Positions 769 through 38,814 of a stretch of DNA of 38,814 nucleotides are shown in pieces. The translations under genes and the position numbers were made by a program. The stretch's first letter is position 1. Each line of letters begins with the position of its first letter. This DNA comes from a virus. Its lineage: Duplodnaviria; Heunggongvirae; Uroviricota; Caudoviricetes. The notes beneath the pieces were generated by a model. The model ran no database searches and was not told the DNA's origin. It saw only the letters and a program-made list of their open reading frames with translations. The stretch lies in the IMG/VR virus record IMGVR_UViG_3300031344_000003, positions 1 to 38,814 of that record; one strand, written 5' to 3'.

Positions 769-1673
769 CAAAGTCACTTCAATATGAAGTGTACTGTTAC
801 AGTTGTCATTGCGCACGATGCACGTGGCGCGATATCTACGTCGGTAAGGCTAAATATGGCACCAATGATCGGCACCATACGCACGTAGTCGTTGCTCGTC
901 GAATATTGTCAGGGCGCGGCACTAAAAAAGACCTGAAGTTTGATTACTTCATGGCAAAGCACGGGATTGATAATCTTCATGTAAGAACTTTGATCACGTG
1001 TTCATCTGAAGACGAAATGAATGACCAAGAGATTAAGATGATTGTTGAAAAAAAGACGTTCCACGAGTTTGGTGGAATGAATTTTGATCGTGGTGGTCGT
1101 GGCGGGCGTAGAAAGGGAGTTTATACACCTACGCCTGAGACGCGTGTTAACGCTAGCATTGCACAAAAGAAAGCTCATGAAGCTGATCCCACATTGCGAT
1201 ACAGAGCAACGCGTGGTTTAATAGAAGGTGGAAAAGTGTGGCGTGAAGCAAATCCTGATGCGATGAAAGGTGTTGTTGAACGTGGGTGGGAAACAATTCA
1301 TAAGCAACTTGAAACTGATCCTGAGTATGCTGAACAATTCACAGCCATGCACATGGAGAAGTCGCGCAAGGGTGGCGATGCGTTCTTGGTTAAACACGCC
1401 AATCCAGAATTTGCAGATGATTTTGCAAAAAAGTGTGGTGATGGCGTAAGTGCTTGGTGTAAGGCAAACCCAGAAAGTGTCAAGCTACGTGCACAACGCG
1501 CCGCGGGAACTAAAGCTGCTAATGGTACTGGGATTAAAGCTGCTCGCGCCACAGCGCAAAAAACGCCTAAATCAGAGTACACACGTCGTGGACTAAAAGG
1601 GTGGGAGTTACGACGTCAAAGGCAATTTCGCCAAAAATCTCACTCATGGCTTACGAGAGAAAAGGCAGAGTGA
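765..1673 (+). CDS. free-standing GIY-YIG-like homing endonuclease
   Basis: YEVYCY...IYVGK..R, E..E..MI, MNFDRGGRGG, then a basic helical tail; AT-richer than neighbours; ATGA overlap with HD gene. Confidence 0.75.
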   Translation: MTKSLQYEVYCYSCHCARCTWRDIYVGKAKYGTNDRHHTHVVVARRILSGRGTKKDLKFDYFMAKHGIDNLHVRTLITCSSEDEMNDQEIKMIVEKKTFHEFGGMNFDRGGRGGRRKGVYTPTPETRVNASIAQKKAHEADPTLRYRATRGLIEGGKVWREANPDAMKGVVERGWETIHKQLETDPEYAEQFTAMHMEKSRKGGDAFLVKHANPEFADDFAKKCGDGVSAWCKANPESVKLRAQRAAGTKAANGTGIKAARATAQKTPKSEYTRRGLKGWELRRQRQFRQKSHSWLTREKAE

Positions 1674-1975
1674 TGACTTCACTCATTGTTCCCGGCGATG
1701 TTGTTTCCCTCAAAGGCACAAGCGGGGGTATGTCGCGTCAACACCTGTATTCGACACCGGGTATCGATGCTATCGCCGACGTAAGTGATGATGGGGTGTT
1801 GTTCGTTGTGTCTACCCTTGAGGTCAAGGACGCATACAAGAGGAGCGGCATACTTCGCAGCGAGTTCTTCTTCTACGTTCTCATCATGTCGGGTCACATT
1901 AGTGGCCATATGGCCGGGTGGATCACTGCTGGTCGAGTGGTGAAGTTGTGGAGTGCACATGAAGCAGTTGCCTGA
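1673..1975 (+). CDS. hypothetical small protein (PGD-x-V N-terminus, SH3/KOW-like)
   Basis: TGATG overlap with upstream stop; MTSLIVPGDVVSLKG...GWI. Confidence 0.6.
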   Translation: MTSLIVPGDVVSLKGTSGGMSRQHLYSTPGIDAIADVSDDGVLFVVSTLEVKDAYKRSGILRSEFFFYVLIMSGHISGHMAGWITAGRVVKLWSAHEAVA

Positions 1976-2135
1976 TGACAAGACCTATGCGTGTCCCAAG
2001 TGCGCGGGACCTACCACTAAGTTGAAGGGCTTTGCATGCTACTGGTGCCGACCCTGTGACCACGTCATTGATCTGTGGTATACCGATGATCTCGTGGTCA
2101 TTGATGCGTCAAAGTCACCCGTCAAGCCTATTTAG
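1959..2135 (+). CDS. small zinc-ribbon protein
   Basis: CPKC...WCRPC; fills the gap between neighbours. Confidence 0.55.
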   Translation: MKQLPDDKTYACPKCAGPTTKLKGFACYWCRPCDHVIDLWYTDDLVVIDASKSPVKPI

Positions 2136-2138
2136 AAC

Positions 2139-2363
2139 ATGAGCAATTCACTGCTCGAAAAGTACATCAGGTTGATGGTTCAAGAGGCACATGATGCCCG
2201 GGTACCCAATCAATTGGTCGGTGACTCGGGTGATGAGGGCGAACAGGTTGAAGTGGATGAGGCATCGGTGGTTGGCGGCATAGCAGGCTACACTGCACCT
2301 CTCGGCATGGATCCAGACAAACTAGGACGTAGGAAGAACGCATCCAAGCGGAAGCGCAAGTAA
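2139..2363 (+). CDS. hypothetical protein, possibly virion-associated
   Basis: MSNSLLEKYIRLMVQE leader variant; preceded by CCTATTTA motif 4 nt upstream of ATG. Confidence 0.7.
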   Translation: MSNSLLEKYIRLMVQEAHDARVPNQLVGDSGDEGEQVEVDEASVVGGIAGYTAPLGMDPDKLGRRKNASKRKRK

Positions 2364-2388
2364 TTCAGCACAAAGCGGTAACAGGAAC

Positions 2389-2414
2389 GGTGGCGCAGAA
2401 CAATCTGCGCCACC
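2389..2414. terminator. perfect 11-bp hairpin (terminator or processing site)
   Basis: GGTGGCGCAGA-ACAA-TCTGCGCCACC; no strong U tract. Confidence 0.5.
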
Positions 2415-2416
2415 CC

Positions 2417-2445
2417 TTGAACAAGGCAACGGACGAAGGTATGAT
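2417..2445 (+). promoter_or_regulatory. sigma70-like promoter (leadered)
   Basis: TTGAAC-N17-TATGAT. Confidence 0.7.
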
Positions 2446-2490
2446 CCAATGGTAGGTGCACTGATGCACTCACATAGTGGTTCATTCTGA

Positions 2491-2507
2491 GGTAGTAGGA
2501 AAGAGGA
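2491..2507 (+). repeat. direct repeat copy 1 (ribosome-binding region), copy 2 at 3670..3686
   Basis: GGTAGTAGGAAAGAGGA vs GGTAATAGGAAAGAGGA, 16/17 identical. Confidence 0.75.
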
Positions 2508-2513
2508 TAGAAA

Positions 2514-2738
2514 ATGGCACAGGAATTCAATCCCGGTGATCAAGTTAAACACTTGTCAGGTGGACCTGTAATGACGGTTGACTATTGCAACGGCACCGCA
2601 GCTACTTGTTCATGGTTCGATCATAAAAGTGGTAAGTTTGAAACAGCGACACTCAGGAAAATAGCTCTCAAACTTCATGTGGAAGAGCATCAACCTGTCG
2701 TCCTACAAGACGACGGATACAAGTGGCCGACGGACTAA
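2514..2738 (+). CDS. YodC/DUF2158-like small protein
   Basis: FNPGDQVKHLSGGPVMTV...CSWFD matches the family pattern; strong SD. Confidence 0.75.
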   Translation: MAQEFNPGDQVKHLSGGPVMTVDYCNGTAATCSWFDHKSGKFETATLRKIALKLHVEEHQPVVLQDDGYKWPTD

Positions 2739-2741
2739 TCG

Positions 2742-3674
2742 GTGCTGATTACCAAGCTTTCCGCCACGCGTGCACTATGTGCGTGTGATGTTTGTGGCAC
2801 AGAAATTGTTCGTTCATTCAACCGTATGGGTGAACTGCAATTCTGTACACGTGCATGCATGACTTCAGCGCGGAAAGCTGGTGGTGTTCTACAACGGAAG
2901 ACCGAAGCTACAGCACTTACAAAGTACGGTGTCACGAACGTAGCAAAATCAGTTCTCATCAAGGAACAGACGAAGCAAACGTGCATGGTGCGCTATGGTG
3001 TCTCAGCACCTGTGTTATCGCCTGAGATTGATGCCAAACGTCGCAAGACGCTTGAAGAGCGGTATGGTGTTGATCAGACGTTCAAGTCTACTGATGTGCG
3101 TGCCAAGTCTCGTGATACCAAACTTGAACGGTATGGTGAGGAATGGCCTGCTAAATTAGACGCCACGAAGCAAAAAGTGATAGAGACGAACATGGAGCGT
3201 TACGGCGTTCCAAGTCCCTTTAGTCTCGGATCACCCTTTCGCAGCGCTGATGATTGTAGTAAAGGGGGACAGGTTAGCTATCGTGCTCAAGGACTTAAGG
3301 CGGGTGGCGAAGGGTTCTTATCGAAACCTGAACTTCAGTTACGTGATCTATTGGTTGAACAGTTCGGCGTTGAAGATGTTGATCAACAAGTTGTGGTGCA
3401 ACACGGCGTTCGAAAACCTTGGTTGATCGACTTCTATGTCAAGTCAATTGACACCTACGTGCAATCAGACGGCGTCTATTGGCATGGGCTTGATAGGGCA
3501 TATAATGAACTGCATCCGGATGCACAGAAGACGTATGATCACGATAGACAGCAAGATCAATGGTTCGTGAACAATGGACGACGTCTGATTAGGATTACTG
3601 ACAAGCAAGTGAAAGAGTGGATGAAGACGGGATCCGCGTCAGATGCGCTGAAGCAGATTCTTCTTCAACGGTAA
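2742..3674 (+). CDS. free-standing endonuclease: Zn finger, RYG repeats, DUF559/Vsr-like PD-(D/E)xK domain
   Basis: CDVCG/FCTRAC; five [KR]YG[VE] repeats; C-terminal KPE...IDFYV...DGVYWHG. Confidence 0.7.
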   Translation: MLITKLSATRALCACDVCGTEIVRSFNRMGELQFCTRACMTSARKAGGVLQRKTEATALTKYGVTNVAKSVLIKEQTKQTCMVRYGVSAPVLSPEIDAKRRKTLEERYGVDQTFKSTDVRAKSRDTKLERYGEEWPAKLDATKQKVIETNMERYGVPSPFSLGSPFRSADDCSKGGQVSYRAQGLKAGGEGFLSKPELQLRDLLVEQFGVEDVDQQVVVQHGVRKPWLIDFYVKSIDTYVQSDGVYWHGLDRAYNELHPDAQKTYDHDRQQDQWFVNNGRRLIRITDKQVKEWMKTGSASDALKQILLQR

Positions 3675-3686
3675 TAGGAAAGAGGA
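3670..3686 (+). repeat. direct repeat copy 2 (SSB ribosome-binding region)
   Basis: See 2491..2507. Confidence 0.75.
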
Positions 3687-3694
3687 ATAGGAAC

Positions 3695-4621
3695 ATGGTA
3701 GATCTCGAGGCGATTCGTCGCAAAGTCGCGCAGCTCAACGGCGAGCGCAAGAATTCAAACGTCCAGCTGTGGAAGCCCGCCCCGGGCGAGTACAAGGTCA
3801 GGGGACTGCCGTGGAAGCCCGGCACCGCGACCGCTGATTCCCCCTTCATTGAGCGCCAGTTCTACTACTTGGGCGATCAACCCCGGATCCTGGCCCCTCG
3901 CCAGTTCAACAAGCCCGATCCCATCAATTCGCTGATCACCAAGCTGTTCCGCTCTGGCAACCCCGATGACCGCGAGAACGCCAAGAAGCTGATGCCCAAG
4001 ATGGTCGCCTACATGCCCCTCATCGTCCGCGGTGAAGAGGACAAGGGCGTGCAGGTGTGGTCGCTCAACAAGCTCGTCTACAAGGACCTGCTGGCGCTGT
4101 TCACCAATACCGAACTGTCGGATGATGGCAGCCTCATTGACTTTCTCGACCCGGTCGATGGCATTGATCTCAAGGTGACGATCACCAAGTCGCCCAAAAA
4201 GTTCAACGGGCGTGACGTGATGGACGTCAAGATCGGCGCCGTCCGCAAGCAGAGCAAGTTGTCGAACGACGACGCGCAGGCCAAGAAGTGGCTCGACAAC
4301 CTCCCCAACGTCGACGACATGTTCCCGACCAAGACGACGGCCGAGATTGAAGCGGCGCTCAACGCTTACCTGTCGGGTGATTCACCTGACGCTGACGGTT
4401 CAAGCCGTGGCACTAAACCTCAGGACGAACTCGACAAGTTGGCCGATGATGTCAAGGCCGAAGTCAAGGCGCCCGCGACCGAAGCAGCGAAGGCGCCAAA
4501 GGCAGCGCCCGCCGCGAAGAAGGCCCCTGCCAAGAAGGCCGAAGTTGATGACGACGCTCCCGCTGAAAAAGTGTCGCTCGATGATGCCTTTGCATCGTTG
4601 ATCAACGACAACGACGAGTAA
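3695..4621 (+). CDS. phage gp32-like single-stranded DNA-binding protein
   Basis: LWKP..GEY.VR.LP, DPI, IVRGEEDKGV..W, DP..G.DL; Ala/Lys-rich linker and acidic tail; SD upstream of ATG 3695 (earlier start in ORF track rejected). Confidence 0.85.
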   Translation: MVDLEAIRRKVAQLNGERKNSNVQLWKPAPGEYKVRGLPWKPGTATADSPFIERQFYYLGDQPRILAPRQFNKPDPINSLITKLFRSGNPDDRENAKKLMPKMVAYMPLIVRGEEDKGVQVWSLNKLVYKDLLALFTNTELSDDGSLIDFLDPVDGIDLKVTITKSPKKFNGRDVMDVKIGAVRKQSKLSNDDAQAKKWLDNLPNVDDMFPTKTTAEIEAALNAYLSGDSPDADGSSRGTKPQDELDKLADDVKAEVKAPATEAAKAPKAAPAAKKAPAKKAEVDDDAPAEKVSLDDAFASLINDNDE

Positions 4622-4630
4622 CAACAGATC

Positions 4631-4650
4631 GGCGAGGGTCCTTCCTCGCC
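4631..4650 (+). terminator. 7-8 bp hairpin downstream of SSB
   Basis: GGCGAGG-GTCCTT-CCTCGCC followed by TT. Confidence 0.4.
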
Positions 4651-4742
4651 TTGCGAGCCAGGTGTAAAGGTGCACAGTCGGCTACCCGCCGGCAGGGCTA
4701 GGTTCAATGCCTAGGGTTTCGCTCGAAGAAAGGCAGTGCCAT

Positions 4743-5939
4743 ATGGCGAAAAAAGTCGAGGCTCAAGATCCCAAAGCTAGCAGTGCTGACGTCGACGACT
4801 TCACGTCGCAATTGATCAAAGACATCAATAAGGAAATGGGTCTTCGTGTGGCCTATAACCTCAATGAGGCTACGGCACCGACGATCGTCAAAAGGTGGAT
4901 CCCGACTGGCTCACTTCAACTCGATTATGCGATCAGGAATTGTGCTGGCGGTGGTTATCCTGAAGGTCGCATCATTGAGATTGCAGGGACGCCGTCTGTC
5001 GGAAAGTCGCACTTGGCCTACCACGTCGCCGCCAACGTGCAGGCGATGGGCGGATTGGTCGTCTACATTGACACCGAGAACGCAACCCCCGTTGACAAGC
5101 TGAAACACATGGGGATTGACGTTCGTAAGCGTTTCGTGTATTGTGATGAGCATGCAACGGAGAACGTCTTCAAGATCATTGAATCGATCATCCTTAAGGC
5201 AAAGACGTTGCCCGCGACCAAGGACATCCCGATTGTCGTGATTTGGGATTCGATTGCTGCCACATCGCCGCTAGCCGAATTGAACGGTGAGTATGAGGAC
5301 AATACCATAGGGTTGCAAGCACGCGTCATCAGTAAGGGGATGAGGAAGATCACTGGCGTCATAGGGCAAAACAATGTGACGTTGTTGTGCTTGAATCAGC
5401 TACGTGATGCCATAGGCGTGATCCATGGTGATCCTCAGGTGACACCCGGGGGAAAAGCAGTGCCATTTCATGCATCAGTTCGTATACGACTTAGCTCTGG
5501 CACGCAAGTCAAGGACAGCAAAGGCAACACGATCGGCATCCACGTCATTGCCACAATCAAGAAGAACAAGGTTGCACCACCTTTTAGGAAGCATGAGTTC
5601 GACATCATCTTTGGTGTTGGGATCGTTGAACACGAGTACATCTTTGATGAAGTCAGAGCATACTGTGCTGACAACAAGGTGTTTGCAGCGTCAGGTGACA
5701 AGCAAGTAGAGATCAAGATCTCTGGAGCGAGTTCATGGAAGGAACTTATTGTCAGCGATGCTAAGACTGGTGAGGTCATCCTCGAGAAGAAGTTCTATAA
5801 GAGTGACTTCGGTGACCTAATGAAGGACTCGCAGTATAAACCATTCATTGATAAGGTGATCGAGGCAACTTACATGACTGTTTCTGGTGAGAAAGCCGAA
5901 GAAGGTGAGACGCCTGTTGACGATGAAGAGGCGGCCTGA
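4743..5939 (+). CDS. recA: RecA/UvsX-family recombinase
   Basis: IPTGSLQLD, GRIIEIAG..SVGKS (Walker A), YIDTE, IWDSIAA, GGKAVPFHASVR, KNKVAPPF; ATG 4743 has an AAAGG SD. Confidence 0.95.
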   Translation: MAKKVEAQDPKASSADVDDFTSQLIKDINKEMGLRVAYNLNEATAPTIVKRWIPTGSLQLDYAIRNCAGGGYPEGRIIEIAGTPSVGKSHLAYHVAANVQAMGGLVVYIDTENATPVDKLKHMGIDVRKRFVYCDEHATENVFKIIESIILKAKTLPATKDIPIVVIWDSIAATSPLAELNGEYEDNTIGLQARVISKGMRKITGVIGQNNVTLLCLNQLRDAIGVIHGDPQVTPGGKAVPFHASVRIRLSSGTQVKDSKGNTIGIHVIATIKKNKVAPPFRKHEFDIIFGVGIVEHEYIFDEVRAYCADNKVFAASGDKQVEIKISGASSWKELIVSDAKTGEVILEKKFYKSDFGDLMKDSQYKPFIDKVIEATYMTVSGEKAEEGETPVDDEEAA

Positions 5940-6739
5940 TGGTAGAGCGCATGGTGTGTCATCGAACCATGACGATGGTGACCAATACACATTTGAAGCG
6001 TCATGCACTGTCGGTCGACGAATACAGGAAGAAATTCCCGGGTGTCACACTAGGAAGCACGCCATGGCTTGAGACCTGGCGCAATAGTGAGAAGAACAAG
6101 CAATACGCTCGTGATCTACTGGTTCACATCGGCCAAGATGAAGAGTTGCAAACGCGTCGGAAGGCTAGCGTAAAGACTGCGTGGAAGAATGTTGATCTAC
6201 TCAAGCGCCACTCTGACACAATGAAATCAGTAGTTCTCATGAATGAAACATACGCAGCACACCTGAGAAACAAGCCAGTCACGGATCGCATGCGCATGTC
6301 GAACTTCGATAGGTGGGTGATCGATCATGGGTACTCCGAAGCTGTTATTCGTCAGCAGGAATGGCAGAAGAACAATGTACTGCCCACGTCGTCAAGGGAC
6401 ACGAAGATAGAACTTCGTGTGCGTGATCTACTAGATGAGTTGGGACACATGTATCTGACACAGTTTGCCGTGCTTCACTACAGGTGTGATGTGTATGTTC
6501 CCGCGTTGAACCTTATCATTGAAGCGAACGGTGATTACTGGCACGCTAACCCAACAAAGCATGCACCAGACGATCTCATTGGTCCGTCACGCTCGTCAGC
6601 AGCGTCTATTTGGGAGCGTGATGTACATAGGGTACATGCATTGAGAAACATGGGGTTCACCGTTCTTATGTTATGGGAGAGTGACATCAAGTCATTGAGT
6701 GCGGAGAGATTAATGGCGTTGATGAAGGAGTGTAACTGA
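5939..6739 (+). CDS. free-standing Vsr/DUF559-like endonuclease with degenerate N-terminal Zn-finger-like segment
   Basis: HLKRH..S.DEY...FPG; TKIE...IIEANGDYWHANP...LWESDI; TGATG overlap with recA. Confidence 0.7.
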   Translation: MVERMVCHRTMTMVTNTHLKRHALSVDEYRKKFPGVTLGSTPWLETWRNSEKNKQYARDLLVHIGQDEELQTRRKASVKTAWKNVDLLKRHSDTMKSVVLMNETYAAHLRNKPVTDRMRMSNFDRWVIDHGYSEAVIRQQEWQKNNVLPTSSRDTKIELRVRDLLDELGHMYLTQFAVLHYRCDVYVPALNLIIEANGDYWHANPTKHAPDDLIGPSRSSAASIWERDVHRVHALRNMGFTVLMLWESDIKSLSAERLMALMKECN

Positions 6740-7146
6740 TGGACACTCACGTGCAGTGGGCGATCTCTGCCGATGTTGAGGGCTTGGTCAAGGTGATCAC
6801 CGATTGTAGAAAGCAGTTGATCGACATTGCCAAGCGTAAGCACAACAAGTCTCGCGTCACCGTCGTGGCGTGCGATGCCTATGCAGATCCCAAGGTCGTT
6901 GAATTGCTACGCCTGAGTGAGGCGTGGATCGGTGCTGACCCACTACCCGCCGTCATCAACAAGCGGACGGGTGAGGAACAGGTTGAGTTGTCGGAGCGTG
7001 TCGCCACATTTGACTCCTTTCAACTGCACACCCACCCGATCATGGGTGAGCGCGACATCAGGTTGATCATGGAACTTGGAGTGGGTGACGACCGCGATCA
7101 GCTCTTTTTCGGCAATATTGCACTGACAGACGGAACGACGCCATGA
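6739..7146 (+). CDS. hypothetical protein
   Basis: TGATG coupling; codon usage like core genes. Confidence 0.65.
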   Translation: MDTHVQWAISADVEGLVKVITDCRKQLIDIAKRKHNKSRVTVVACDAYADPKVVELLRLSEAWIGADPLPAVINKRTGEEQVELSERVATFDSFQLHTHPIMGERDIRLIMELGVGDDRDQLFFGNIALTDGTTP

Positions 7147-7376
7147 AGAATGCACTGATCTTTCTGGAGCTATTGACCAAGCAGTTCCCGCCACTGGCCC
7201 GTCATGCCCACTCGTTGACCCTGCACCGTGGCAAGTTGATGGTGGCCTTGGTCAACACAGCGCCGTGTTCCACGTTCATCCTCAACGCTGCAGACCTGGA
7301 GCACGACCCTGCCAAACTGGTCAGGGAGATCGTGGGCCTGATGTCGAAAGAAGATCAACCGAAGCAGCCGGCCTGA
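7143..7376 (+). CDS. hypothetical protein
   Basis: ATGA coupling. Confidence 0.65.
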   Translation: MKNALIFLELLTKQFPPLARHAHSLTLHRGKLMVALVNTAPCSTFILNAADLEHDPAKLVREIVGLMSKEDQPKQPA

Positions 7377-7401
7377 ACTGTGTGCCCGTGAGGGGTACAG
7401 T
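7373..7401 (+). promoter_or_regulatory. sigma70-like promoter, probably leaderless
   Basis: CTGAAC-N17-TACAGT-N7-ATG; -35 contains the upstream TGA stop. Confidence 0.7.
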
Positions 7402-7408
7402 GATAGAC

Positions 7409-8383
7409 ATGTCAAGTGATCGTCCTATCCTGATTGTGGATGCAATGAATCTGTTCGTCAGGAGTTGGGCCGCTTATCCGACCATGTCGAGCCATGGATA
7501 CCAGATGGGCGGTTGCATCGGCTTTCTGAAGACGTTGAAGCGCATTGTCAATGAAGTGCAGCCCCGGGCCGTCTATGTCTGTTGGGAGTCAGGAGGTAGC
7601 TCACGCCGTCGCAAGTTGTTCGCCGAATACAAGCTCAACCGCAAACCTGGTAAGCTCAATCGCTTCTATGAAGACGACATTCCTGACACCGAAGAGAACA
7701 GGCGCCACCAACTCGAGGCACTGGTCTACATGTCAAAGTGTGCGCCCTTCTGCCAGTTATTCGTGCAGGACTGTGAGGGAGATGACCTCGTCGCCTACCT
7801 GTGTTGCGGGCCCCTGCGCGGCGACGACAAGGTCATCGTGTCGTCCGATAAGGACCTCTACCAGCTGCTCGACGATCGGACGAAGTTGTACAGCCTTCAC
7901 AAGAAGACCTACGTCACTAAGGCCGATGTCATGGAGGAATTTAGAGTACAGTCAAAGCACTTCGCGTTGGCCAAGGCACTGTGCGGTGACAATGGTGACA
8001 ACGTGCCTGGCATCAAGGGCTTGGGTTTCAAGACGGTGGCCAAGCTGTTCCCAATGTTGGGCCTCGATGATGACTTGTTGTTGCAGGACATCATCGACTA
8101 CGCTCATACCCACGTCGATGAGTCGAAGATCTTTCAACGCATCGTCGAACAAGCGGACGATGTGAGGCGCAATTGGAGACTAGTGTTCTTAGACGGCAGC
8201 ATGTTGTCGGCGACACAGCAGGCGGCGATAGACCAGCGATTGCAGAACTTCGTGCCTAGGCCTGATAGGATTGGGTTGGTCAGGCGCCTCATCAATGAGG
8301 GCATCGGTGACTTTGCCGTTGAGGACTTTTTTGGTGCGTTCAATTGCATTGAGAACACGCAACACAAGACGGGAGACGAGTGA
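7409..8383 (+). CDS. 5'-3' exonuclease / T4 RNase H-like flap nuclease
   Basis: ILIVDAMN, EYK.NRK, EGDD, SSDKDLYQL, GDNGDNVPGIKGLG.KT. Confidence 0.92.
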   Translation: MSSDRPILIVDAMNLFVRSWAAYPTMSSHGYQMGGCIGFLKTLKRIVNEVQPRAVYVCWESGGSSRRRKLFAEYKLNRKPGKLNRFYEDDIPDTEENRRHQLEALVYMSKCAPFCQLFVQDCEGDDLVAYLCCGPLRGDDKVIVSSDKDLYQLLDDRTKLYSLHKKTYVTKADVMEEFRVQSKHFALAKALCGDNGDNVPGIKGLGFKTVAKLFPMLGLDDDLLLQDIIDYAHTHVDESKIFQRIVEQADDVRRNWRLVFLDGSMLSATQQAAIDQRLQNFVPRPDRIGLVRRLINEGIGDFAVEDFFGAFNCIENTQHKTGDE

Positions 8384-13783: not shown

Positions 13784-13996
13784 ATGACCCTCCTAATGCT
13801 GTTCGCCGCCGTCCTCATCTTTGCACTTTTCATTTGGATTGCCAGCATCGTGCCGGTGCCTGCAAAGATGCCCTGGCTCCGTACCATCTTCTACATTTTC
13901 ATCGCGCTGGTCGCGATCGTCCTTTTGGCGCAGTTCGCCGGCTGCACTGACCTGGGCCTCAACCACAGCATCGGCGTCGGCCACCGCGCCAACTAA
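13784..13996 (+). CDS. small two-TM membrane protein
   Basis: Two hydrophobic stretches; CCTAGTTA motif 5 nt upstream of ATG. Confidence 0.7.
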   Translation: MTLLMLFAAVLIFALFIWIASIVPVPAKMPWLRTIFYIFIALVAIVLLAQFAGCTDLGLNHSIGVGHRAN

Positions 13997-32559: not shown

Positions 32560-33561
32560 ATGAGCCGCAATGTCTTGATCACGGGTGCAGCGGGGTTTGT
32601 CGGCAGTCACCTGTGCAAACACTACCTCGATGCGGGTGACAGAGTCTGGGGCATCGACAACTTCTGCTCGTCAGACGAGCACTCTGAACACTTGGCGGCA
32701 CTGAAGGCCCACTCGAACTTCACTTTCTCCATGGCTGATGTTACCGATGATCACCAAGACTGGTTTTCAATCTTTGAATTTAACATGGATAATGTCAAGT
32801 TCGACCTCATCTTAAATTTCGCGTGTCCCGCCTCTCCTCCGTCATACCAAGACATGCCGGTTTTGACGATGATGACGTGCACACAGGGTACCGCAAACGT
32901 GCTCGACCTGGCAGATGAACACGGTGCCGTCGTCGTCCACGCATCGACCAGTGAGGTGTACGGTGAGCCGCTGGTGTCACCGCAACGCGAAGACTATAGA
33001 GGAAATGTAAATCCGTATGGGCCTCGGGCTTGTTACGACGAGGGTAAACGTGCTGCCGAAGCGCTGTGCTACGACTACTTGCACATGTACGGCGTCGATG
33101 CGCGTGTGGTTCGGGTGTTCAACACTTATGGGCCGCACCTCGATCAGCACGACGGCCGTGTCATCAGCAACTTCATCAGGCAAGCGTTGCAGGGTGAACC
33201 ACTGACGGTGTATGGGCACGGCCAGCAGGGGCGGTCGTTCTGCTACGTTGATGACTTGGTGCGTGGCATCGTCGCGGTGGGTGACCTGCCTGCGAACCCG
33301 CAGGGACCCATCAACCTCGGCAACCCTAATGAATACAGGGTGATTGAGCTGGCGACGAGGGTGCTTGAGAAGGTCGGTGCACTTGAACGGCACCGCTTGC
33401 GCGGCGATCAAATCATCCACAAGCCCATGCCCATCGACGACCCGACGCAGAGGTGCCCCGACATCACGCGGGCCAAAGAGCTGCTCGGGTGGGAGCCACG
33501 GGTTGGGCTCGACGAGGGCCTAGATCGAACGATAGGCTACTTTCGGCGCGTCGTCAGGTGA
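32560..33561 (+). CDS. UDP-glucuronate decarboxylase (UDP-xylose synthase)-like extended SDR
   Basis: TGAAGFVGSHL, ACPASP, STSEVYG, GNVNP.GPRACYDEGKR, DGRVISNFI.QAL, SFCYVDD; TATGAT-N7-ATG. Confidence 0.9.
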   Translation: MSRNVLITGAAGFVGSHLCKHYLDAGDRVWGIDNFCSSDEHSEHLAALKAHSNFTFSMADVTDDHQDWFSIFEFNMDNVKFDLILNFACPASPPSYQDMPVLTMMTCTQGTANVLDLADEHGAVVVHASTSEVYGEPLVSPQREDYRGNVNPYGPRACYDEGKRAAEALCYDYLHMYGVDARVVRVFNTYGPHLDQHDGRVISNFIRQALQGEPLTVYGHGQQGRSFCYVDDLVRGIVAVGDLPANPQGPINLGNPNEYRVIELATRVLEKVGALERHRLRGDQIIHKPMPIDDPTQRCPDITRAKELLGWEPRVGLDEGLDRTIGYFRRVVR

Positions 33562-33579
33562 GTTCTCCGCACGTGGGTG

Positions 33580-33586
33580 ATACTTA
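33580..33586 (+). promoter_or_regulatory. TACTTA-class promoter
   Basis: GATACTTAACC followed by AAGGA SD. Confidence 0.55.
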
Positions 33587-33607
33587 ACCACGAAGGAATT
33601 CATCACC

Positions 33608-34048
33608 ATGACGATCGATCCGGTTCAAGTAGCCGCGTATGTTACCGCTGGCGCACTCGCTGCGACGAAGTTGTTTAGTGCGTTTCAACCACTGTGGCAA
33701 AAACTGCCGCGGTGGCTCGCTGTCGCCTTCCCGATCCTCGTGTTGGATCTTCCGCAGGTTGCCGTCTACTTCGGCCATACTGCCACGACGGGATCGCTAT
33801 CGACAGCGTTGATCGCTTCACTCGCCTTGCTCGTCCCGGGCGTCGCTGAGGCTGAACTTACGCCGCAGCAGGTGACCGCCGCGAAAATCGCTGCGATTAA
33901 ATCTGCCGCATCTGACACCGCCGACGCTGCCCAAGCGACGAAAGACGCCCACGCAATGCCCGTGGGTGAAGGCGCACCGATGCCGGCGACTGTTGCTACG
34001 GGTGTCACGGGCACCGCCACTGTCGTGGTGACGCCGCCGAAGGCATAA
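33608..34048 (+). CDS. membrane protein, holin-like (2-3 TM plus Ala-rich tail)
   Basis: Hydrophobic N-terminal half; putative late promoter. Holin function is inference only. Confidence 0.6.
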   Translation: MTIDPVQVAAYVTAGALAATKLFSAFQPLWQKLPRWLAVAFPILVLDLPQVAVYFGHTATTGSLSTALIASLALLVPGVAEAELTPQQVTAAKIAAIKSAASDTADAAQATKDAHAMPVGEGAPMPATVATGVTGTATVVVTPPKA

Positions 34049-34076
34049 GTTCTTACGTAGAGAGTTTGTTGTTGTG

Positions 34077-34094
34077 TGGTCTCGAAAGAGACCA
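34077..34094 (+). terminator. 7-bp hairpin with GAAA tetraloop
   Basis: TGGTCTC-GAAA-GAGACCA then TT. Confidence 0.5.
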
Positions 34095-34131
34095 TTCGAC
34101 GTTAAGGGCGTAGAGTGTTGTACTATGTACA

Positions 34132-34431
34132 ATGAGCCTAAGCATCGAACGTGGTCATGAGTTTGAAAGTAATATGTTTCCCGCCGGCATTGGTGCAGCT
34201 TATGGCATTGTGATGGAAATTGATTCTAGCTCTACTCCCGATCGAATCACTGGAAAGTGGTTGATTGGTGACAAACTGCGTAATTTCTGTGCTGTTGCGC
34301 ACAATGAATTTCACCTTCATCATCCTCAATCTGAAATTGGACTGAGTAGGGCGAAGACTATTGGCCAGTGCGACTTTCTGGGTATTGACACAGTCGGCGT
34401 TGTCTCAATGTGGTATGAACAGGAAAAGTGA
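34132..34431 (+). CDS. hypothetical protein (AT-rich)
   Basis: TACTAT-N5-ATG. Confidence 0.55.
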   Translation: MSLSIERGHEFESNMFPAGIGAAYGIVMEIDSSSTPDRITGKWLIGDKLRNFCAVAHNEFHLHHPQSEIGLSRAKTIGQCDFLGIDTVGVVSMWYEQEK

Positions 34432-34646
34432 GGAGAAAATACATGACGAAAAGTTACATATCAGATGTTGATGCGCAACAAGGTGACTTCTATGAAGACA
34501 CTGAACATCGCGTGTATAAGTGTGTCGCAAGGTGCGGCATCACTGTGACGGAAGGAAAGACATCATACACAACTTCATGGGAGTGCGTGTCAAAGGATGT
34601 TGATCTTGCGCCCGTGGGGCATATGAAACAAACTTCACGGCGCTGA
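34428..34646 (+). CDS. hypothetical protein (AT-rich)
   Basis: GTGA coupling. Confidence 0.5.
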   Translation: MRRKYMTKSYISDVDAQQGDFYEDTEHRVYKCVARCGITVTEGKTSYTTSWECVSKDVDLAPVGHMKQTSRR

Positions 34647-34649
34647 CGA

Positions 34650-34695
34650 AAAATTAACGACCTACGGGGCGCACAATTTCTTGGGCACCCCATAG
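34650..34695 (-). terminator. intrinsic terminator of the minus-strand peptide transcript
   Basis: On minus: 14-pair stem with two G-U wobbles (C/A mismatches on plus), one mismatch, GAAA loop, then GTCGTTAATTTTT. Confidence 0.7.
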
Positions 34696-34715
34696 ATCTG
34701 GTTAGATGGTCGTGG

Positions 34716-34781
34716 CTAGCGCTTAAGCAGAGCGCGCAGCACGATGATCAAAACCAGTAGTGTCTGTAGGTTGTGAATCAC
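34716..34781 (-). CDS. 21-aa hydrophobic peptide MIHNLQTLLVLIIVLRALLKR (type I toxin-like or lysis peptide)
   Basis: GAAAGGAG SD 7 nt before GTG; hydrophobic core with basic C-terminus; lies in an otherwise non-coding gap; downstream terminator. Confidence 0.65.
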   Translation of the reverse strand: MIHNLQTLLVLIIVLRALLKR

Positions 34782-34813
34782 GGTGTGTCTCCTTTCTCGA
34801 AGGTGGGAGAAAT

Positions 34814-34845
34814 ATCAGGTCAACGGATGGTGCCGTTGACCTGAT
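34814..34845. other. perfect 13-bp hairpin in the leader of the peptide gene
   Basis: ATCAGGTCAACGG-ATGGTG-CCGTTGACCTGAT. Confidence 0.75.
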
Positions 34846-34878
34846 GCGTTTGTGGGGAACTATTGCCTTCACAGATCG

Positions 34879-34886
34879 TAAATAGG
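34879..34886 (-). promoter_or_regulatory. TATTTA-class promoter candidate for the peptide transcript
   Basis: Minus strand CCTATTTA, identical to 2127..2134. Confidence 0.45.
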
Positions 34887-34914
34887 TGATGGTTGTCGTA
34901 TAATACATGTTGGG

Positions 34915-35121
34915 ATGCCTCGTCATGTTCACGAATTTTCTGTGGGCGGTTTGTGGGCACAGATAACCATTCACATTGATACGTATTCACTCATGCAACA
35001 ATCCGCTTTCCGTGATACGGGTGCACACAGTGATGATCATTCAATGATGTTTGTGCGAAGTGATCTTCTCCACCTCTCCATTGTACGATCCCACCCATGC
35101 CCAGCGATTACTTGGTCGTGA
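34915..35121 (+). CDS. possible hypothetical protein
   Basis: Perfect TATAAT at 34899..34904 upstream; overlaps next gene; no motif recognised. Confidence 0.3.
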   Translation: MPRHVHEFSVGGLWAQITIHIDTYSLMQQSAFRDTGAHSDDHSMMFVRSDLLHLSIVRSHPCPAITWS

Positions 35122-35546
35122 CTGACGCAGAACGTGAAAACGCACGCCGCAAGGCGGAGATCATGGCCGCCAACATCATCCGTCGGGGCTGTGCAGGGGA
35201 CCGCTCGCGCGTGACGGTAGAAAGTGACTGCAACCGTGGCCTCATCGTCGAACAGCTCCGCAATCGAGGCGATGAGGCCTGGTGGAACGATCACTGGGAG
35301 AAAGCACAAGTGGTCGGCGATGACGGAGGCATTGACACCCGCGATGGGACTGACCTCAAGGTTATCAGGCCAGGCAATCGCTTCGTGTTTGTGAAGCGTC
35401 GCAGTGCCCGCGCGGAGAACTATGAGGCCTGGGAACTCGACGATGAGTGCATTTTTGCGAGGCGCATGGGCACCTTCACTCGCGGCGACATTCGCGACAA
35501 CATCTGGGGCGGTGTCAGCGGTGTCCTCGTCAGTGACCTGAAGTAG
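35097..35546 (+). CDS. hypothetical protein
   Basis: TACGAT-N7-ATG. Confidence 0.65.
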   Translation: MPSDYLVVTDAERENARRKAEIMAANIIRRGCAGDRSRVTVESDCNRGLIVEQLRNRGDEAWWNDHWEKAQVVGDDGGIDTRDGTDLKVIRPGNRFVFVKRRSARAENYEAWELDDECIFARRMGTFTRGDIRDNIWGGVSGVLVSDLK

Positions 35547-35944
35547 TGACCTTCTCCGCCTTTCCGTGGTACAGTCTACTCATGCCCAATGACGACGGCT
35601 CCGACGCAGGCCTCCGCCGCACCCACCTCCTCTACGAACTGTTGATCACCGAGCTCATTGTCGGCAGGAATACGATCGCCGATGAATTGACGAAGTCTAA
35701 ACTCGACCAAGATCCCTACTACCTGATGGGCCAAGCCTCCCTCAACGTCGCCCTGCACAGCGCTGCGTCGGCGTTGGAGGATAGCGGCCTGATCGACGAG
35801 GATTCGATGCGGTGCCGTGACTGCGGCATGCGCTTCGTCGACCACGATGAGGATACGCACAACGAAGACTTGCCCGAGATTCCGGGTGCAGCGACTTCGC
35901 CCGAGGGTTCTGCTCCCACCAAGCCGCCGAGCAAGCTGAACTGA
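35546..35944 (+). CDS. hypothetical protein
   Basis: TAGTG coupling; CRDC. Confidence 0.6.
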   Translation: MTFSAFPWYSLLMPNDDGSDAGLRRTHLLYELLITELIVGRNTIADELTKSKLDQDPYYLMGQASLNVALHSAASALEDSGLIDEDSMRCRDCGMRFVDHDEDTHNEDLPEIPGAATSPEGSAPTKPPSKLN

Positions 35945-36453
35945 TGTCTTGTGTTGTTTACGTCATTACCAATCGCGTCAATGGCAAACGATACGTTGGG
36001 AAAACGATCCACCAAACTACAAGGTGGGCAACCCATGTCAGGGCGGCATTTACAAGTGGGTCACAATATGCGATTCATCGCGCGATCCGTAAACACGGAA
36101 AAGAGAATTTTGACTTTCAGGTCGTCAGTGAGCACGCCACTGAAGAGGAAGCGTTTATCGAAGAAACTCGGTTGATCCGAGAGTTGAATACGACTAAACT
36201 GGGCTACAATATGAACGAGGGTGGGAAAGGTGGTATTTCACCGACCGAAGAGGTCAGACAAAAAATCGTTCTAAAAGCCACTGGTCGGAAGCAAAGCGCT
36301 GAACAACGACAACAGGAGAGTGAACGGACGACCGGATCAGGAAACCCGATGTACGGTCGTAAACAGAAGCCTGAAACGCTTGAGAAGATGCGTATCAAAC
36401 GTCTTGAATATTGGGCGAAGCGACGAGCTGAACGTACGTCTAAGGTACAATAA
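35944..36453 (+). CDS. free-standing GIY-YIG homing endonuclease with NUMOD3-like tail
   Basis: VVYVITNRVNGKRYVGKT, AIRKHGKENF, GYNMNEGG, GNPMYGRK. Confidence 0.88.
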   Translation: MSCVVYVITNRVNGKRYVGKTIHQTTRWATHVRAAFTSGSQYAIHRAIRKHGKENFDFQVVSEHATEEEAFIEETRLIRELNTTKLGYNMNEGGKGGISPTEEVRQKIVLKATGRKQSAEQRQQESERTTGSGNPMYGRKQKPETLEKMRIKRLEYWAKRRAERTSKVQ

Positions 36454-36456
36454 AAC

Positions 36457-38814
36457 ATGTCACGCGTTCCGAAGAAGTTTGTTGGTCTACACGCTCATAC
36501 AGGGTTTAGTCCCTTCGATGGACTTGGGTATCCGGATGAACACTTCATCTGGTGCATGGAAAACGGTTTGGACGCGCATACTATCACGGACCATGGTAAC
36601 TGCTCTGCTTATGCGCATGCCATGCTCTGGGCAGAAAAGTGGAACACTGAGCACAAAGACAAGCCCTTCAAGTATATTCCCGGCGTCGAGGCGTACTTTC
36701 ATCCCGATTTGGCGCAATGGTCTCGAGATAAGGCCGCCGCTGATCAAGCCACCATCGACAAGGCCGCCGCCAAGAAGCTACGCACCAAGCTCGAGATCCT
36801 GCAGACCAAGCTCGTCGTCAATACTGACGGCGATGACGAGTCGGAGTCAATTGAAGTCTCCAACGCCCTCACGCTTGAGGACGAGTCAGAATCGAAGAGC
36901 ACCAAGCACTTCAATCCTGTCAATCGTCGGCATCACCTCGTGCTACTACCCAAGAACCCTGCTGGTCTACTGAAGATCTTCGGTCTGGTGTCGCAGAGCT
37001 ATTTGACCGGATTTTACCGTTTCCCGAGGCTTGATGCCAAGATGCTGCGGGAAGCCTGTAAGGAAGGCAACATCATTGCCTCGTCTGCCTGCATTGCGGG
37101 TCAGCCTGCATACAGCGTCTTTCAAGAGGTGCAGAAGCTGAAGTTCGACGACCTAAACCAGGCGTTGCTCGACGATCCTACCACACTGGAGAAGTGCATC
37201 ACTGGTGTCGGTAACACTTACGACCTGATGACGTCGGTGCTGGGCGAAGGCAATTACTACCTCGAATTGCAGTTCAATAAACTACCCGCACAGAACCTCG
37301 TCAATCGAGCCATCATCGAGTTCGCTCGCCGAGCAGGCGTCACCAAGCAACTTATCGTCACCGCCGACTCCCACTATCCACGGCCAGAGCTGTGGAAAGA
37401 GCGCGAGCTGTACAAGAAGCTCGGCTGGATGAATGCGAAGGGAATCGACGCCGATTCGCTGCCCAAGTCGAGGGACGAGCTGAAGTGTGAGCTGTACCCG
37501 AAGAACGCATCGCAGGTGTGGGATGAGTACCTGCGCTCGAAGGTGGGGACGTCGTTCTATGATGACGATCTCGTCGCTGATGCAATTGAACGCACTCACG
37601 ACATCGCCCACCAAGTCATCGGCCCGGTGCCGCCCGATCGGTCACCCAAGTTTCCGAATGAGCGGCTGATCCCGAAGGGCACCAAGTCGTTCGATCACCT
37701 CGTCAAACTGTGCAAGGAGGGCCTGACCAAGAGGGGATTGCAGGACAAGCCTGCCTACGTTGAGCGGTTGAAGGAGGAGCTGGGCGTCATCAAGGCGATG
37801 AAGAATGCCGACTATTTCGTGTCATACCAGAAAATCATGGAGTTGGCGCGAAAAGTGGTACTATGTGGGCCTGGGAGAGGCAGTGGTGGTGGAAGTCTCG
37901 TCGCCTACGTGCTCTACATCACTGACCTCGACCCGTTGAGGTGGGAGCTCCCATTTTCTCGCTTTCTCTCGATCTACAGGAAAGGTGCGCCGGACATCGA
38001 CAGCGATCTCGCCGATCGCGACAAGGTGCTCGAGCAACTACGCAACTTCTTCGGCTTTGAGAACGTCGTCCCGATCAGCAACTACAACACCTTCAAGCTG
38101 AAGACGCTGGTCAAGGACATCGGCAAGTTCTACAGCGTGCCCTTCGAGGAGACCAATGCAGCAACAAGGACAGTGGAAGACGAAGTTCGCAAGGCAACGA
38201 TGAAGGAAAGCGACGACAAGAACCTTTTCACACTGACTTTTGATGATGCGATGTTGTATAGCCCGTCGTTCAAGGCCTTCATCGACAAGTACCCGCAGGT
38301 CGCCGAGAGCATCAAGATCCTGTTCAAGCAAAATCGTAGTTTAGGACGTCATGCTGGAGGTGTTCTCATAACTGATGACCTGCCTAACAAGATGCCGCTG
38401 GTCGCTAGTCACGGTGAACCTCAATCGCCCTGGGTAGAAGGCGTGGGATTTAAACATTTAGAATATATTGGTGCGTTTCTTAAGTACGATCTCTTGGGTC
38501 TTGAAACTTTGCGCTATATCGAGCGCGCAATTGAGTTGATCCTGATCAAGGAAGGCAATCCCAAGCCCACCTTTCCCGACATCAAGGCGTGGTACGACGC
38601 CCACATGGCACCCGATGTCATTGACTTCAACGACCAGAAGGTCTACGAGGTCTATGCCGAAGGCAAGTGGTCGGGCATCTTTCAATGTACGGGTCAAGGC
38701 GCCCAACGCCTGTTCAAGAAGGCTAAGCCCAAGTCGATCATCGACATCGCCGCCTTGACGTCGATCTATCGTCCCGGCCCATTGGCCGCCCACGTCGACA
38801 AGCTGTGGTTGGAG
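36457..38814 (+). CDS. dnaE: DNA polymerase III alpha subunit (partial, runs off right edge; absent from ORF track)
   Basis: Hand-translated: PHP motifs HAH..S.FDG, TDHGN, GVEAY, DSHY; GRGSGGGSLVAY; catalytic PDIDSD (37990..38007); GRHAGG; KYDLLGL; YRPGP at the end; no stop seen in the segments translated and frame consistent to 38814. Confidence 0.95.
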   Translation, partial: MSRVPKKFVGLHAHTGFSPFDGLGYPDEHFIWCMENGLDAHTITDHGNCSAYAHAMLWAEKWNTEHKDKPFKYIPGVEAYFHPDLAQWSRDKAAADQATIDKAAAKKLRTKLEILQTKLVVNTDGDDESESIEVSNALTLEDESESKSTKHFNPVNRRHHLVLLPKNPAGLLKIFGLVSQSYLTGFYRFPRLDAKMLREACKEGNIIASSACIAGQPAYSVFQEVQKLKFDDLNQALLDDPTTLEKCITGVGNTYDLMTSVLGEGNYYLELQFNKLPAQNLVNRAIIEFARRAGVTKQLIVTADSHYPRPELWKERELYKKLGWMNAKGIDADSLPKSRDELKCELYPKNASQVWDEYLRSKVGTSFYDDDLVADAIERTHDIAHQVIGPVPPDRSPKFPNERLIPKGTKSFDHLVKLCKEGLTKRGLQDKPAYVERLKEELGVIKAMKNADYFVSYQKIMELARKVVLCGPGRGSGGGSLVAYVLYITDLDPLRWELPFSRFLSIYRKGAPDIDSDLADRDKVLEQLRNFFGFENVVPISNYNTFKLKTLVKDIGKFYSVPFEETNAATRTVEDEVRKATMKESDDKNLFTLTFDDAMLYSPSFKAFIDKYPQVAESIKILFKQNRSLGRHAGGVLITDDLPNKMPLVASHGEPQSPWVEGVGFKHLEYIGAFLKYDLLGLETLRYIERAIELILIKEGNPKPTFPDIKAWYDAHMAPDVIDFNDQKVYEVYAEGKWSGIFQCTGQGAQRLFKKAKPKSIIDIAALTSIYRPGPLAAHVDKLWLE

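Follow-up and report, generated by a model that had tools for sequence, protein, structure and literature searches.

The 38,814-nt window analyzed here is bases 33409–72222 of a 215,857-base IMG/VR virus record (IMGVR_UViG_3300031344_000003), estimated to be 63% complete. Downstream of the plus-strand gene p72 it contains a gap of 450 nt with no plus-strand open reading frame (ORF; 34647–35096), whose length an original prediction for this locus had put at about 270 nt. The minus strand of this gap may carry a gene of its own: a moron-like, late-expressed unit of ~220 nt encoding a 21-residue membrane peptide, morons being independently expressed genes inserted into phage operons (PMC2629481, citing Hendrix and colleagues). 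The probability of this reading is put at about 0.45. The evidence for it is that the genome's top small hydrophobic ORF with a Shine-Dalgarno (SD) sequence, its top terminator, and a late-type promoter motif are found in the correct order, on one strand, within 240 nt, in the one ORF-free gap of notable size in this region. All of the elements listed in the original prediction are present on the minus strand where it had placed them.

In the proposed unit, an RNA of ~220 nt would start near 34872 from the motif CCTATTTA, pass through a very stable 5′ hairpin (hairpin B) that may shield or attenuate the RNA 5′ end, and continue into an SD-led ORF of 21 codons, whose product, hydrophobic with a basic tail, would presumably be inserted in the membrane. 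Transcription would end at a second hairpin with its tail (hairpin A, 34698–34648), 2 nt before the convergent p72 gene, and this terminator would hold minus-strand transcription away from the plus-strand p99-p72 operon. We infer from the sequence that the unit is transcribed, that this happens late, and that the peptide is produced and has its effect at the membrane, where it could time lysis, mediate exclusion, or modulate a membrane protein. If real, the unit would be one more unannotated micro-protein gene in a giant-phage genome, and would indicate that single-strain inserts come with, or gain, the phage's late promoter signal and a canonical terminator.

Signals on the minus strand

The motif CCTATTTA (34886–34879, minus strand) is an instance of (GA|CC)TAnTTA, a class recognized by its genome-wide placement; a −10-like hexamer, TACGAT (34880–34875, minus), overlaps it. 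The genome has 26 instances of the class, about the count that composition predicts. In seventeen of these (65%), an ORF of at least 70 aa has its first start codon no more than 30 nt further downstream, while 60 permuted control motifs are found at gene starts in 7.8% of cases on average and 33% at most. Downstream genes include those for the tail sheath (PF17482), an S66 LD-carboxypeptidase, small membrane proteins, and the membrane protein p146, as well as a gp19-like tail tube (the match is below the Pfam cut-off) and a set of proteins with a common N-terminal leader, M[KR]xTxxxL[KR]xxIxE. Upstream of the p146 orthologues, the core ATA[GC]TTA is kept in four relatives. Sites in the window are at 2127, 12456, 13771, 26642, 28306, and 33579 on the plus strand and 34886 on the minus strand, with about 19 more in the rest of the genome. 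Many instances end 4–6 nt before an ATG, a spacing that suggests leaderless mRNAs; others are followed by an SD-bearing leader. The class is probably a real promoter-like signal for late expression. The guess that CCTATTTA is a late motif is borne out to this extent, both by the excess at gene starts over the controls (8%) and by the late type of the genes downstream.

Hairpin A (34698–34659, minus strand), with its U-rich tail GUUAAUUUUUC extending to 34648, has the stable GC-rich stem-loop and adjoining U-rich tract that define an intrinsic terminator. The stem has 17 pairs, three of them G-U, and a GAAA (GNRA) loop; 14 pairs with two G-U had been counted before. The claim that it functions only on this strand fares better. 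Its G-U pairs are A-C mismatches on the opposite strand, and its predicted energy is −28.1 kcal/mol (z = −7.19) on the minus strand vs. −15.7 kcal/mol (z = −2.48) on the plus strand. On the minus strand, the 10 nt following the stem include seven U; there is no U tract on the plus strand. By these features it is clearly to be read as a minus-strand element. In a survey of the 216-kb genome, with 48-nt windows folded for both strands and local hairpins kept at −16 kcal/mol or below, only 14 of 3070 were followed by at least six T in the next 10 nt; hairpin A in its minus-strand orientation is the most stable of these, and is intergenic. A simple terminator scan missed it, its stem and tail geometry being outside the rules of the tool. 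The tail, GTCGTTAA, resembles the plus-strand terminator tails of this phage family. With only 2 nt between its end and the p72 stop codon, the terminator would insulate the convergent plus-strand genes.

The ORF between the motif and hairpin A, MIHNLQTLLVLIIVLRALLKR (34781–34716, minus strand), has a GTG start and a TAG stop and would yield a short hydrophobic helix with a basic C-terminus. Its SD, AAGGAG (34794–34789, minus), is 7 nt upstream of the GTG at 34781. There are 356 sites in the genome with an SD plus a start codon, 123 of which open ORFs of 18–60 aa; the 21-codon ORF is the most hydrophobic of the 123, with a mean Kyte-Doolittle value of 1.35 and a best 15-residue window of 2.47. 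With the long genes of the phage as yardstick, its codon log-odds are +0.31 per codon, compared to 0.34 (standard deviation 0.28) for 21-codon windows of real genes and −0.21 (standard deviation 0.34) for stop-free windows in non-coding frames, 5.8% of which reach +0.31. The remaining minus-strand ORFs in the gap (49, 56, and 83 codons) all have negative codon scores.

The SD had been predicted to be hidden by a TCTCC…GGAGA pairing. It is indeed mostly paired in the predicted ensemble, its G residues at 79–87%, via several weak alternatives; the local minimum-energy stem, however, is UUUCUC/GAGAAA (34812–34807/34798–34793), at only −4.6 kcal/mol.

Hairpin B has a perfect 13-bp stem and a 6-nt loop (arms at 34814–34826 and 34833–34845) and could form on either strand, with predicted energies of −21.9 kcal/mol (z = −6.84) on the minus strand and −23.5 to −24.5 kcal/mol (z = −4.82) on the plus strand. 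Perfect hairpins of at least 10 bp occur at six loci in 216 kb, and this is the second-longest. It is followed by AUUUCUCC on the minus strand and GCGUUUGUGG on the plus strand, and would lie at about +27 to +58 of the predicted minus-strand transcript. It could be a 5′ stabilizer or attenuator for that transcript, a terminator for p99-p72 on the plus strand, or a protein-binding palindrome.

Several observations weigh against a translated minus-strand unit. Nine of the 26 motif instances have no following gene, so that the motif alone is no proof of a promoter. Where there is a gene, the start codon is usually 4–25 nt after the motif; here the SD-led GTG is 97 nt away, and another GTG, 6 nt past CCTATTTA, opens a 49-codon ORF. 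The tail AUUUCUCC of hairpin B could end minus-strand transcripts upstream of the 21-codon ORF. The hydrophobic run of the peptide is only about 15 residues long, broken by Arg16. The codon test is weak with only 21 codons, and its yardstick may not fit: the genes of the insert in which the unit lies (see below) have a low GC content at third codon positions (0.41–0.46), vs. 0.67 for the ORF. Gene callers applied to the public assemblies called nothing in the gap. Finally, searches of viral contigs, metagenome contigs, and five related genomes found nothing related to the insert, to the peptide, or to either hairpin. An exact hairpin-B pattern had no matches in the viral contigs, and neither the 21-aa nor the 49-aa product belongs to a Pfam, NCBIfam, or PHROG family. 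A degenerate back-translation of the peptide core had no matches in the viral contigs and one in the metagenome contigs, which was rejected as an unrelated chance match.

A strain-specific insert and its bordering signals

The minus-strand unit, p99, and p72 together occupy a low-GC insert of ~950 nt (34100–35055), delimited by synteny, GC content, and absence in relatives. Its GC content is 0.46, vs. 0.60–0.62 in the neighboring sequence and 0.575 in the genome. Relatives by polymerase sequence (42–81% identity) were drawn from viral contigs. In nine of these, p146 is followed by a terminator-promoter cassette and then directly by the DnaE-type polymerase gene, without the insert; in L023 and L024, a p149 homologue stands between cassette and DnaE, again without the insert, so that it is missing at the syntenic site in L002–L009, L016, L023, and L024. 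Nothing in five related genomes, one of them 100% and one 96% complete, matched its DNA or its proteins, and it is not present in any relative examined, including a complete 369-kb genome. In the phage studied here, the order is p146, cassette, p99, p72, the gap, a second promoter copy, and p149. The second promoter copy matches the copy in L023 over its whole length, and 34100–35055 is therefore an insertion specific to this phage. The original prediction had made conservation in relatives one of its tests; there is none, with the whole insert missing from every relative examined, and formally this result goes against it.

The protein evidence is similar. In a word-based search of 5.8 billion proteins, p72 and p99 each matched only themselves, as did p149, and scans of viral contigs for close relatives of p149 and p99 found none. 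A full HMMER search did recover 11 remote homologues of p149 (31–46% identity, E-values 8e-17 to 1e-4); it has no Pfam or PHROG family. For two of the 11, found in other giant phages, the position is syntenic and DnaE is the next gene downstream, a hint of a function linked to replication.

At the sequence level, then, the unit resembles a moron in being absent at the same position in relatives, in having a GC content that deviates from its surroundings (0.46 vs. 0.575), in its own promoter-like signal (CCTATTTA) and intrinsic terminator (hairpin A), and in its small cargo. It differs in being antisense to the surrounding operon, in its location in a giant phage, in using a late-type motif of the phage and not a sigma-70 promoter of the host, and in a product of only 21 residues. 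As an add-on gene of a phage, the probable minus-strand unit would be nothing out of the ordinary.

On either side of the insert stands a copy of a second promoter-like signal, here called class 1. It consists of AGTG[CT]AAGT, 12 nt, TGGTA[GC][AG][GA]T, TAGATC, and then ATG, an arrangement of leaderless type. There are 21 strict copies in the genome, counting both strands, and 35 sites with a position weight matrix (PWM) score above 10. The strict copies are at about 148,900–212,300 of the genome, outside the window; the sites within the window are at 35542–35584 and 35056–35096. The latter (plus strand; AGTGATCT … TTGTACGAT, 7 nt, ATG) precedes p149 and forms the right border of the insert. 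With the p120 promoter (35545–35572) it forms an 82% repeat, and a homologous promoter stands in front of the p149 homologue in L023. By PWM score, the p149 and p120 sites rank 89 and 38 among about 431,000 positions. The second site precedes an ATG at 35582, and for this reason the ORF listed as 132 aa is probably a leaderless gene of 120 aa. Together with the GIY-YIG gene beyond it, p120 is a second addition.

The terminator-promoter cassette at the other end is a composite of a GC-rich hairpin, GTCGTT(T)AAG, a −35-like GTGTAGG or GTGCAAT, TGGTAnnnT, ~6 nt, and ATG. Copies were found at 34049–34131 in the window, at about 5900–6000 in L002, L004, L009, and L016, and at 2912–3000 in L023. Across the phage family it marks a region of variable content that runs from the epimerase/p146 genes to the DnaE polymerase; empty in some relatives, this region contains in others a p149 homologue, a GIY-YIG gene, or a gene for 260 aa. 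In T4-type phages, PeSL promoter-terminator cassettes mediate modular shuffling (PMC2839356, PMC4122927). The insert is likewise flanked by copies of a conserved composite signal in a variable region; the sequences and the phage lineage are different, and recombination is deduced here from arrangement alone. The comparison suggests that the insert may have arrived by recombination between cassettes. In L008 (about 1300–7700), the GIY-YIG gene comes directly after the epimerase gene and the polymerase match starts at query residue 212, suggesting that the DnaE gene is interrupted or rearranged there.

The definition of two promoter-like classes and a cassette for an uncultured phage family with genomes of ~360 kb is likely to be more broadly useful than the unit itself. 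The signal classes can be used for re-annotating gene starts, many of which would be leaderless, and for finding hidden small genes.

Within the insert, the longest-ORF rule appears to have mis-set the starts of both plus-strand genes. A −10-like hexamer, TACAAT, overlaps the ATG at 34132, and public gene calls open p99 at the ATG at 34174, which is probably its true start (85 aa). For p72, the most likely start is the ATG at 34443, 7 nt after a GAGGAG SD, for a product of 67 aa. In one public assembly the call is different, a minus-strand gene of 61 aa at 34138–34323. The spacer between the minus-strand unit and the p149 promoter (34887–35055) is AT-richer still (GC 0.44), with more minus-strand −10-like hexamers (TATTAT, 34906–34901) and a TGATACG direct repeat.

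Alternative readings of the locus

The unit could be transcribed without being translated, as a non-coding RNA in which the 21-codon ORF is fortuitous. The RNA could be ~65 nt long, running from the motif to hairpin B with B and the following AUUUCU as terminator, or ~220 nt long, reaching hairpin A. Of the alternatives this survives best, although it is unlikely. The region is strongly structured: compared to shuffles, a 261-nt stretch folds with z = −6.65 (minus strand) and −6.72 (plus strand). Hairpin B and AUUUCUCC, with a 26-nt single-stranded 5′ arm, have the layout of a small RNA, the SD and start codon are mostly paired in the ensemble, and the ORF has no homologue. A further hairpin can form from the 3′ half of the ORF, although its z of −1.77 on the minus strand falls short of significance (on the plus strand, −24.8 kcal/mol and z = −2.78). 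Three features of the ORF would have to be coincidental under this reading, namely its ideal SD spacing, its first rank in hydrophobicity, and a codon score typical of real genes. An Rfam scan of 33500–36000 with E-values up to 1 yielded no family matching the unit, and no target complementarity was identified.

Less probable again is the absence of any functional minus-strand gene. Hairpin B would then be a terminator or 3′ stabilizer for p99-p72, or a protein-binding palindrome, and hairpin A either no more than a barrier to stray antisense transcripts or a leftover that came with the foreign insert. In keeping with this, hairpin B is no less stable on the plus strand than on the minus strand, the other perfect hairpins of the genome are mostly intergenic as well, the class-1 promoter for p149 is downstream, and the gap is empty both of called genes and, in a generic sigma-70 scan of 33000–36500, of promoters. 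The difficulty is hairpin A. It is strongly minus-specific and the best canonical terminator in the genome, and an SD-led ORF and a late-type motif precede it directly on its own strand; a terminator with nothing to terminate would not easily be maintained.

The original prediction offered two readings, a lysis or superinfection-exclusion peptide and a type I toxin-antitoxin-like module, the latter with the 21-residue peptide as a membrane toxin. As reformulated here, the antitoxin would be plus-strand read-through RNA from p99-p72, complementary to the unit from 34647 to hairpin B and repressing it early via duplex formation and RNase III. The peptide is suitably small (under about 60 aa), hydrophobic, and basic at its tail, and this is the only defining feature of such modules that was found. 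The geometry is convergent, and the promoters of the two strands are in different classes, making temporal antisense control conceivable. Convergent, 3′-overlapping type I pairs are known on prophages, for example bsrG/SR4 (PMC3834814) and yonT/SR6 (PMC5848175); those of the Bacillus subtilis prophages have been reviewed (PMC6562991, PMC6563280). The present locus is like these two pairs in having a gene for a small hydrophobic peptide on phage DNA, a structured mRNA, and convergent opposite-strand transcription that could cover that mRNA entirely or in its 3′ part. It is unlike them in that no separate antitoxin small RNA gene with its own promoter was found, in the length of the peptide (21 residues vs. 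38 and 58), in the lack of any family relationship or conservation, and in its late-type promoter, which implies expression during lytic growth.

Very short membrane toxins do exist: Ibs, of the Escherichia coli Ibs/Sib system, has 19 aa and is paired with an overlapping antisense gene, Sib. The 21-aa peptide is of the same length class and also has a hydrophobic core; no overlapping antisense gene was found at this locus.

There is no good plus-strand terminator between the p72 stop codon and hairpin B, hairpin A reaching only −15.7 kcal/mol on that strand and having no U tail, and read-through from p99-p72 could therefore be antisense to the whole peptide ORF. No dedicated antisense gene or promoter was found by scans for sigma-70, class-1, and late-type motifs. 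Between 34647 and 34813 there is no late-type motif on the plus strand, and the class-1 PWM finds nothing on the minus strand and nothing credible on the plus strand (best score −10.1), leaving read-through as the sole possible antisense source. The predicted occlusion of the SD is weak. The peptide belongs to no known toxin family or conserved module in Pfam, NCBIfam, PHROG, Rfam, the contigs, or the five genomes, and there are no homologues in which to look for co-variation. A late-type promoter on a giant and probably lytic phage is also ill-suited to an addiction or maintenance role, and fits a lysis, exclusion, or membrane-modulating peptide better. The toxin-antitoxin claim is thus unsupported, and the module improbable; it would matter only if confirmed by experiment.

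A variant of this would be a type I toxin-antitoxin-like circuit in which convergent transcription sets the timing of a tiny membrane-active peptide. The p99-p72 mRNA, of early or middle type, would pass the strand-specific terminator and act as a full-length antisense antitoxin, the 3′ untranslated region of a messenger replacing the small RNA, until the late promoter freed a depolarizing peptide. Under this reading, for which the chances are slim, the role of the peptide would be in lysis timing or superinfection exclusion.

There is similarly little to recommend the 49-residue protein that could start, leaderless, at the GTG at 34872, 6 nt past CCTATTTA, and end at 34723, before terminator A. 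The frame is open throughout, and a motif-to-start spacing of 4–6 nt recurs at seven or more genes. All of the comparable leaderless cases use ATG, however, and codon log-odds of −0.24 per codon are those of a non-coding frame. The perfect 13-bp hairpin would fall in codons 9–20, and the translated sequence is polar and low in structure, with no family match.

The gap was also considered as a replication origin or a homing-endonuclease target, and both were rejected as positive evidence is absent for either; its position in a strain-specific insert makes an origin unlikely in any case.

The phage and its gene neighborhood

The phage is an uncultured giant from soil (about 360 kb) and is probably lytic; proteins identical to its own are found on contigs of up to 361 kb. 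All of the sequencing runs containing it are rhizosphere DNA metagenomes, with no RNA run listed. Two contigs with an identical p149 (L021 and L022) are the same as the window base for base, giving no sign of micro-diversity, and contigs from four low-share runs are all identical fragments, with no joints, locus variants, or insert-free strain among them. A search of phage GenBank DNA with 34000–35600 gave zero matches, and a search for tRNA and tmRNA genes found none.

Nearly all of the genes around the locus are on the plus strand. Upstream of the gap these are p126 (32171), an NAD-dependent sugar epimerase (32548), p146 (33608), and p99 and p72 (34132 and 34428 by their longest-ORF starts). 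Downstream are p149 (35097–35546), the p132 ORF (35546) or, more likely, p120 (ATG at 35582), a GIY-YIG/NUMOD3 endonuclease (35944), and the DnaE-type polymerase (36457). The Rfam scan had one weak match, to Histone3, on the p146 terminator hairpin GTGGTCTCGAAAGAGACCAT (34059–34098, minus strand); at 22.4 bits, below the gathering score, it is almost certainly due to chance.

The original prediction referred to p146 as holin-like. A 70-residue, strongly hydrophobic protein, MTLLMLFAAVLIFALFIWIASIV…, is encoded at 13784–13996 (plus strand), directly 3′ of a late-type motif, and is a better candidate for a holin-type protein than p146.

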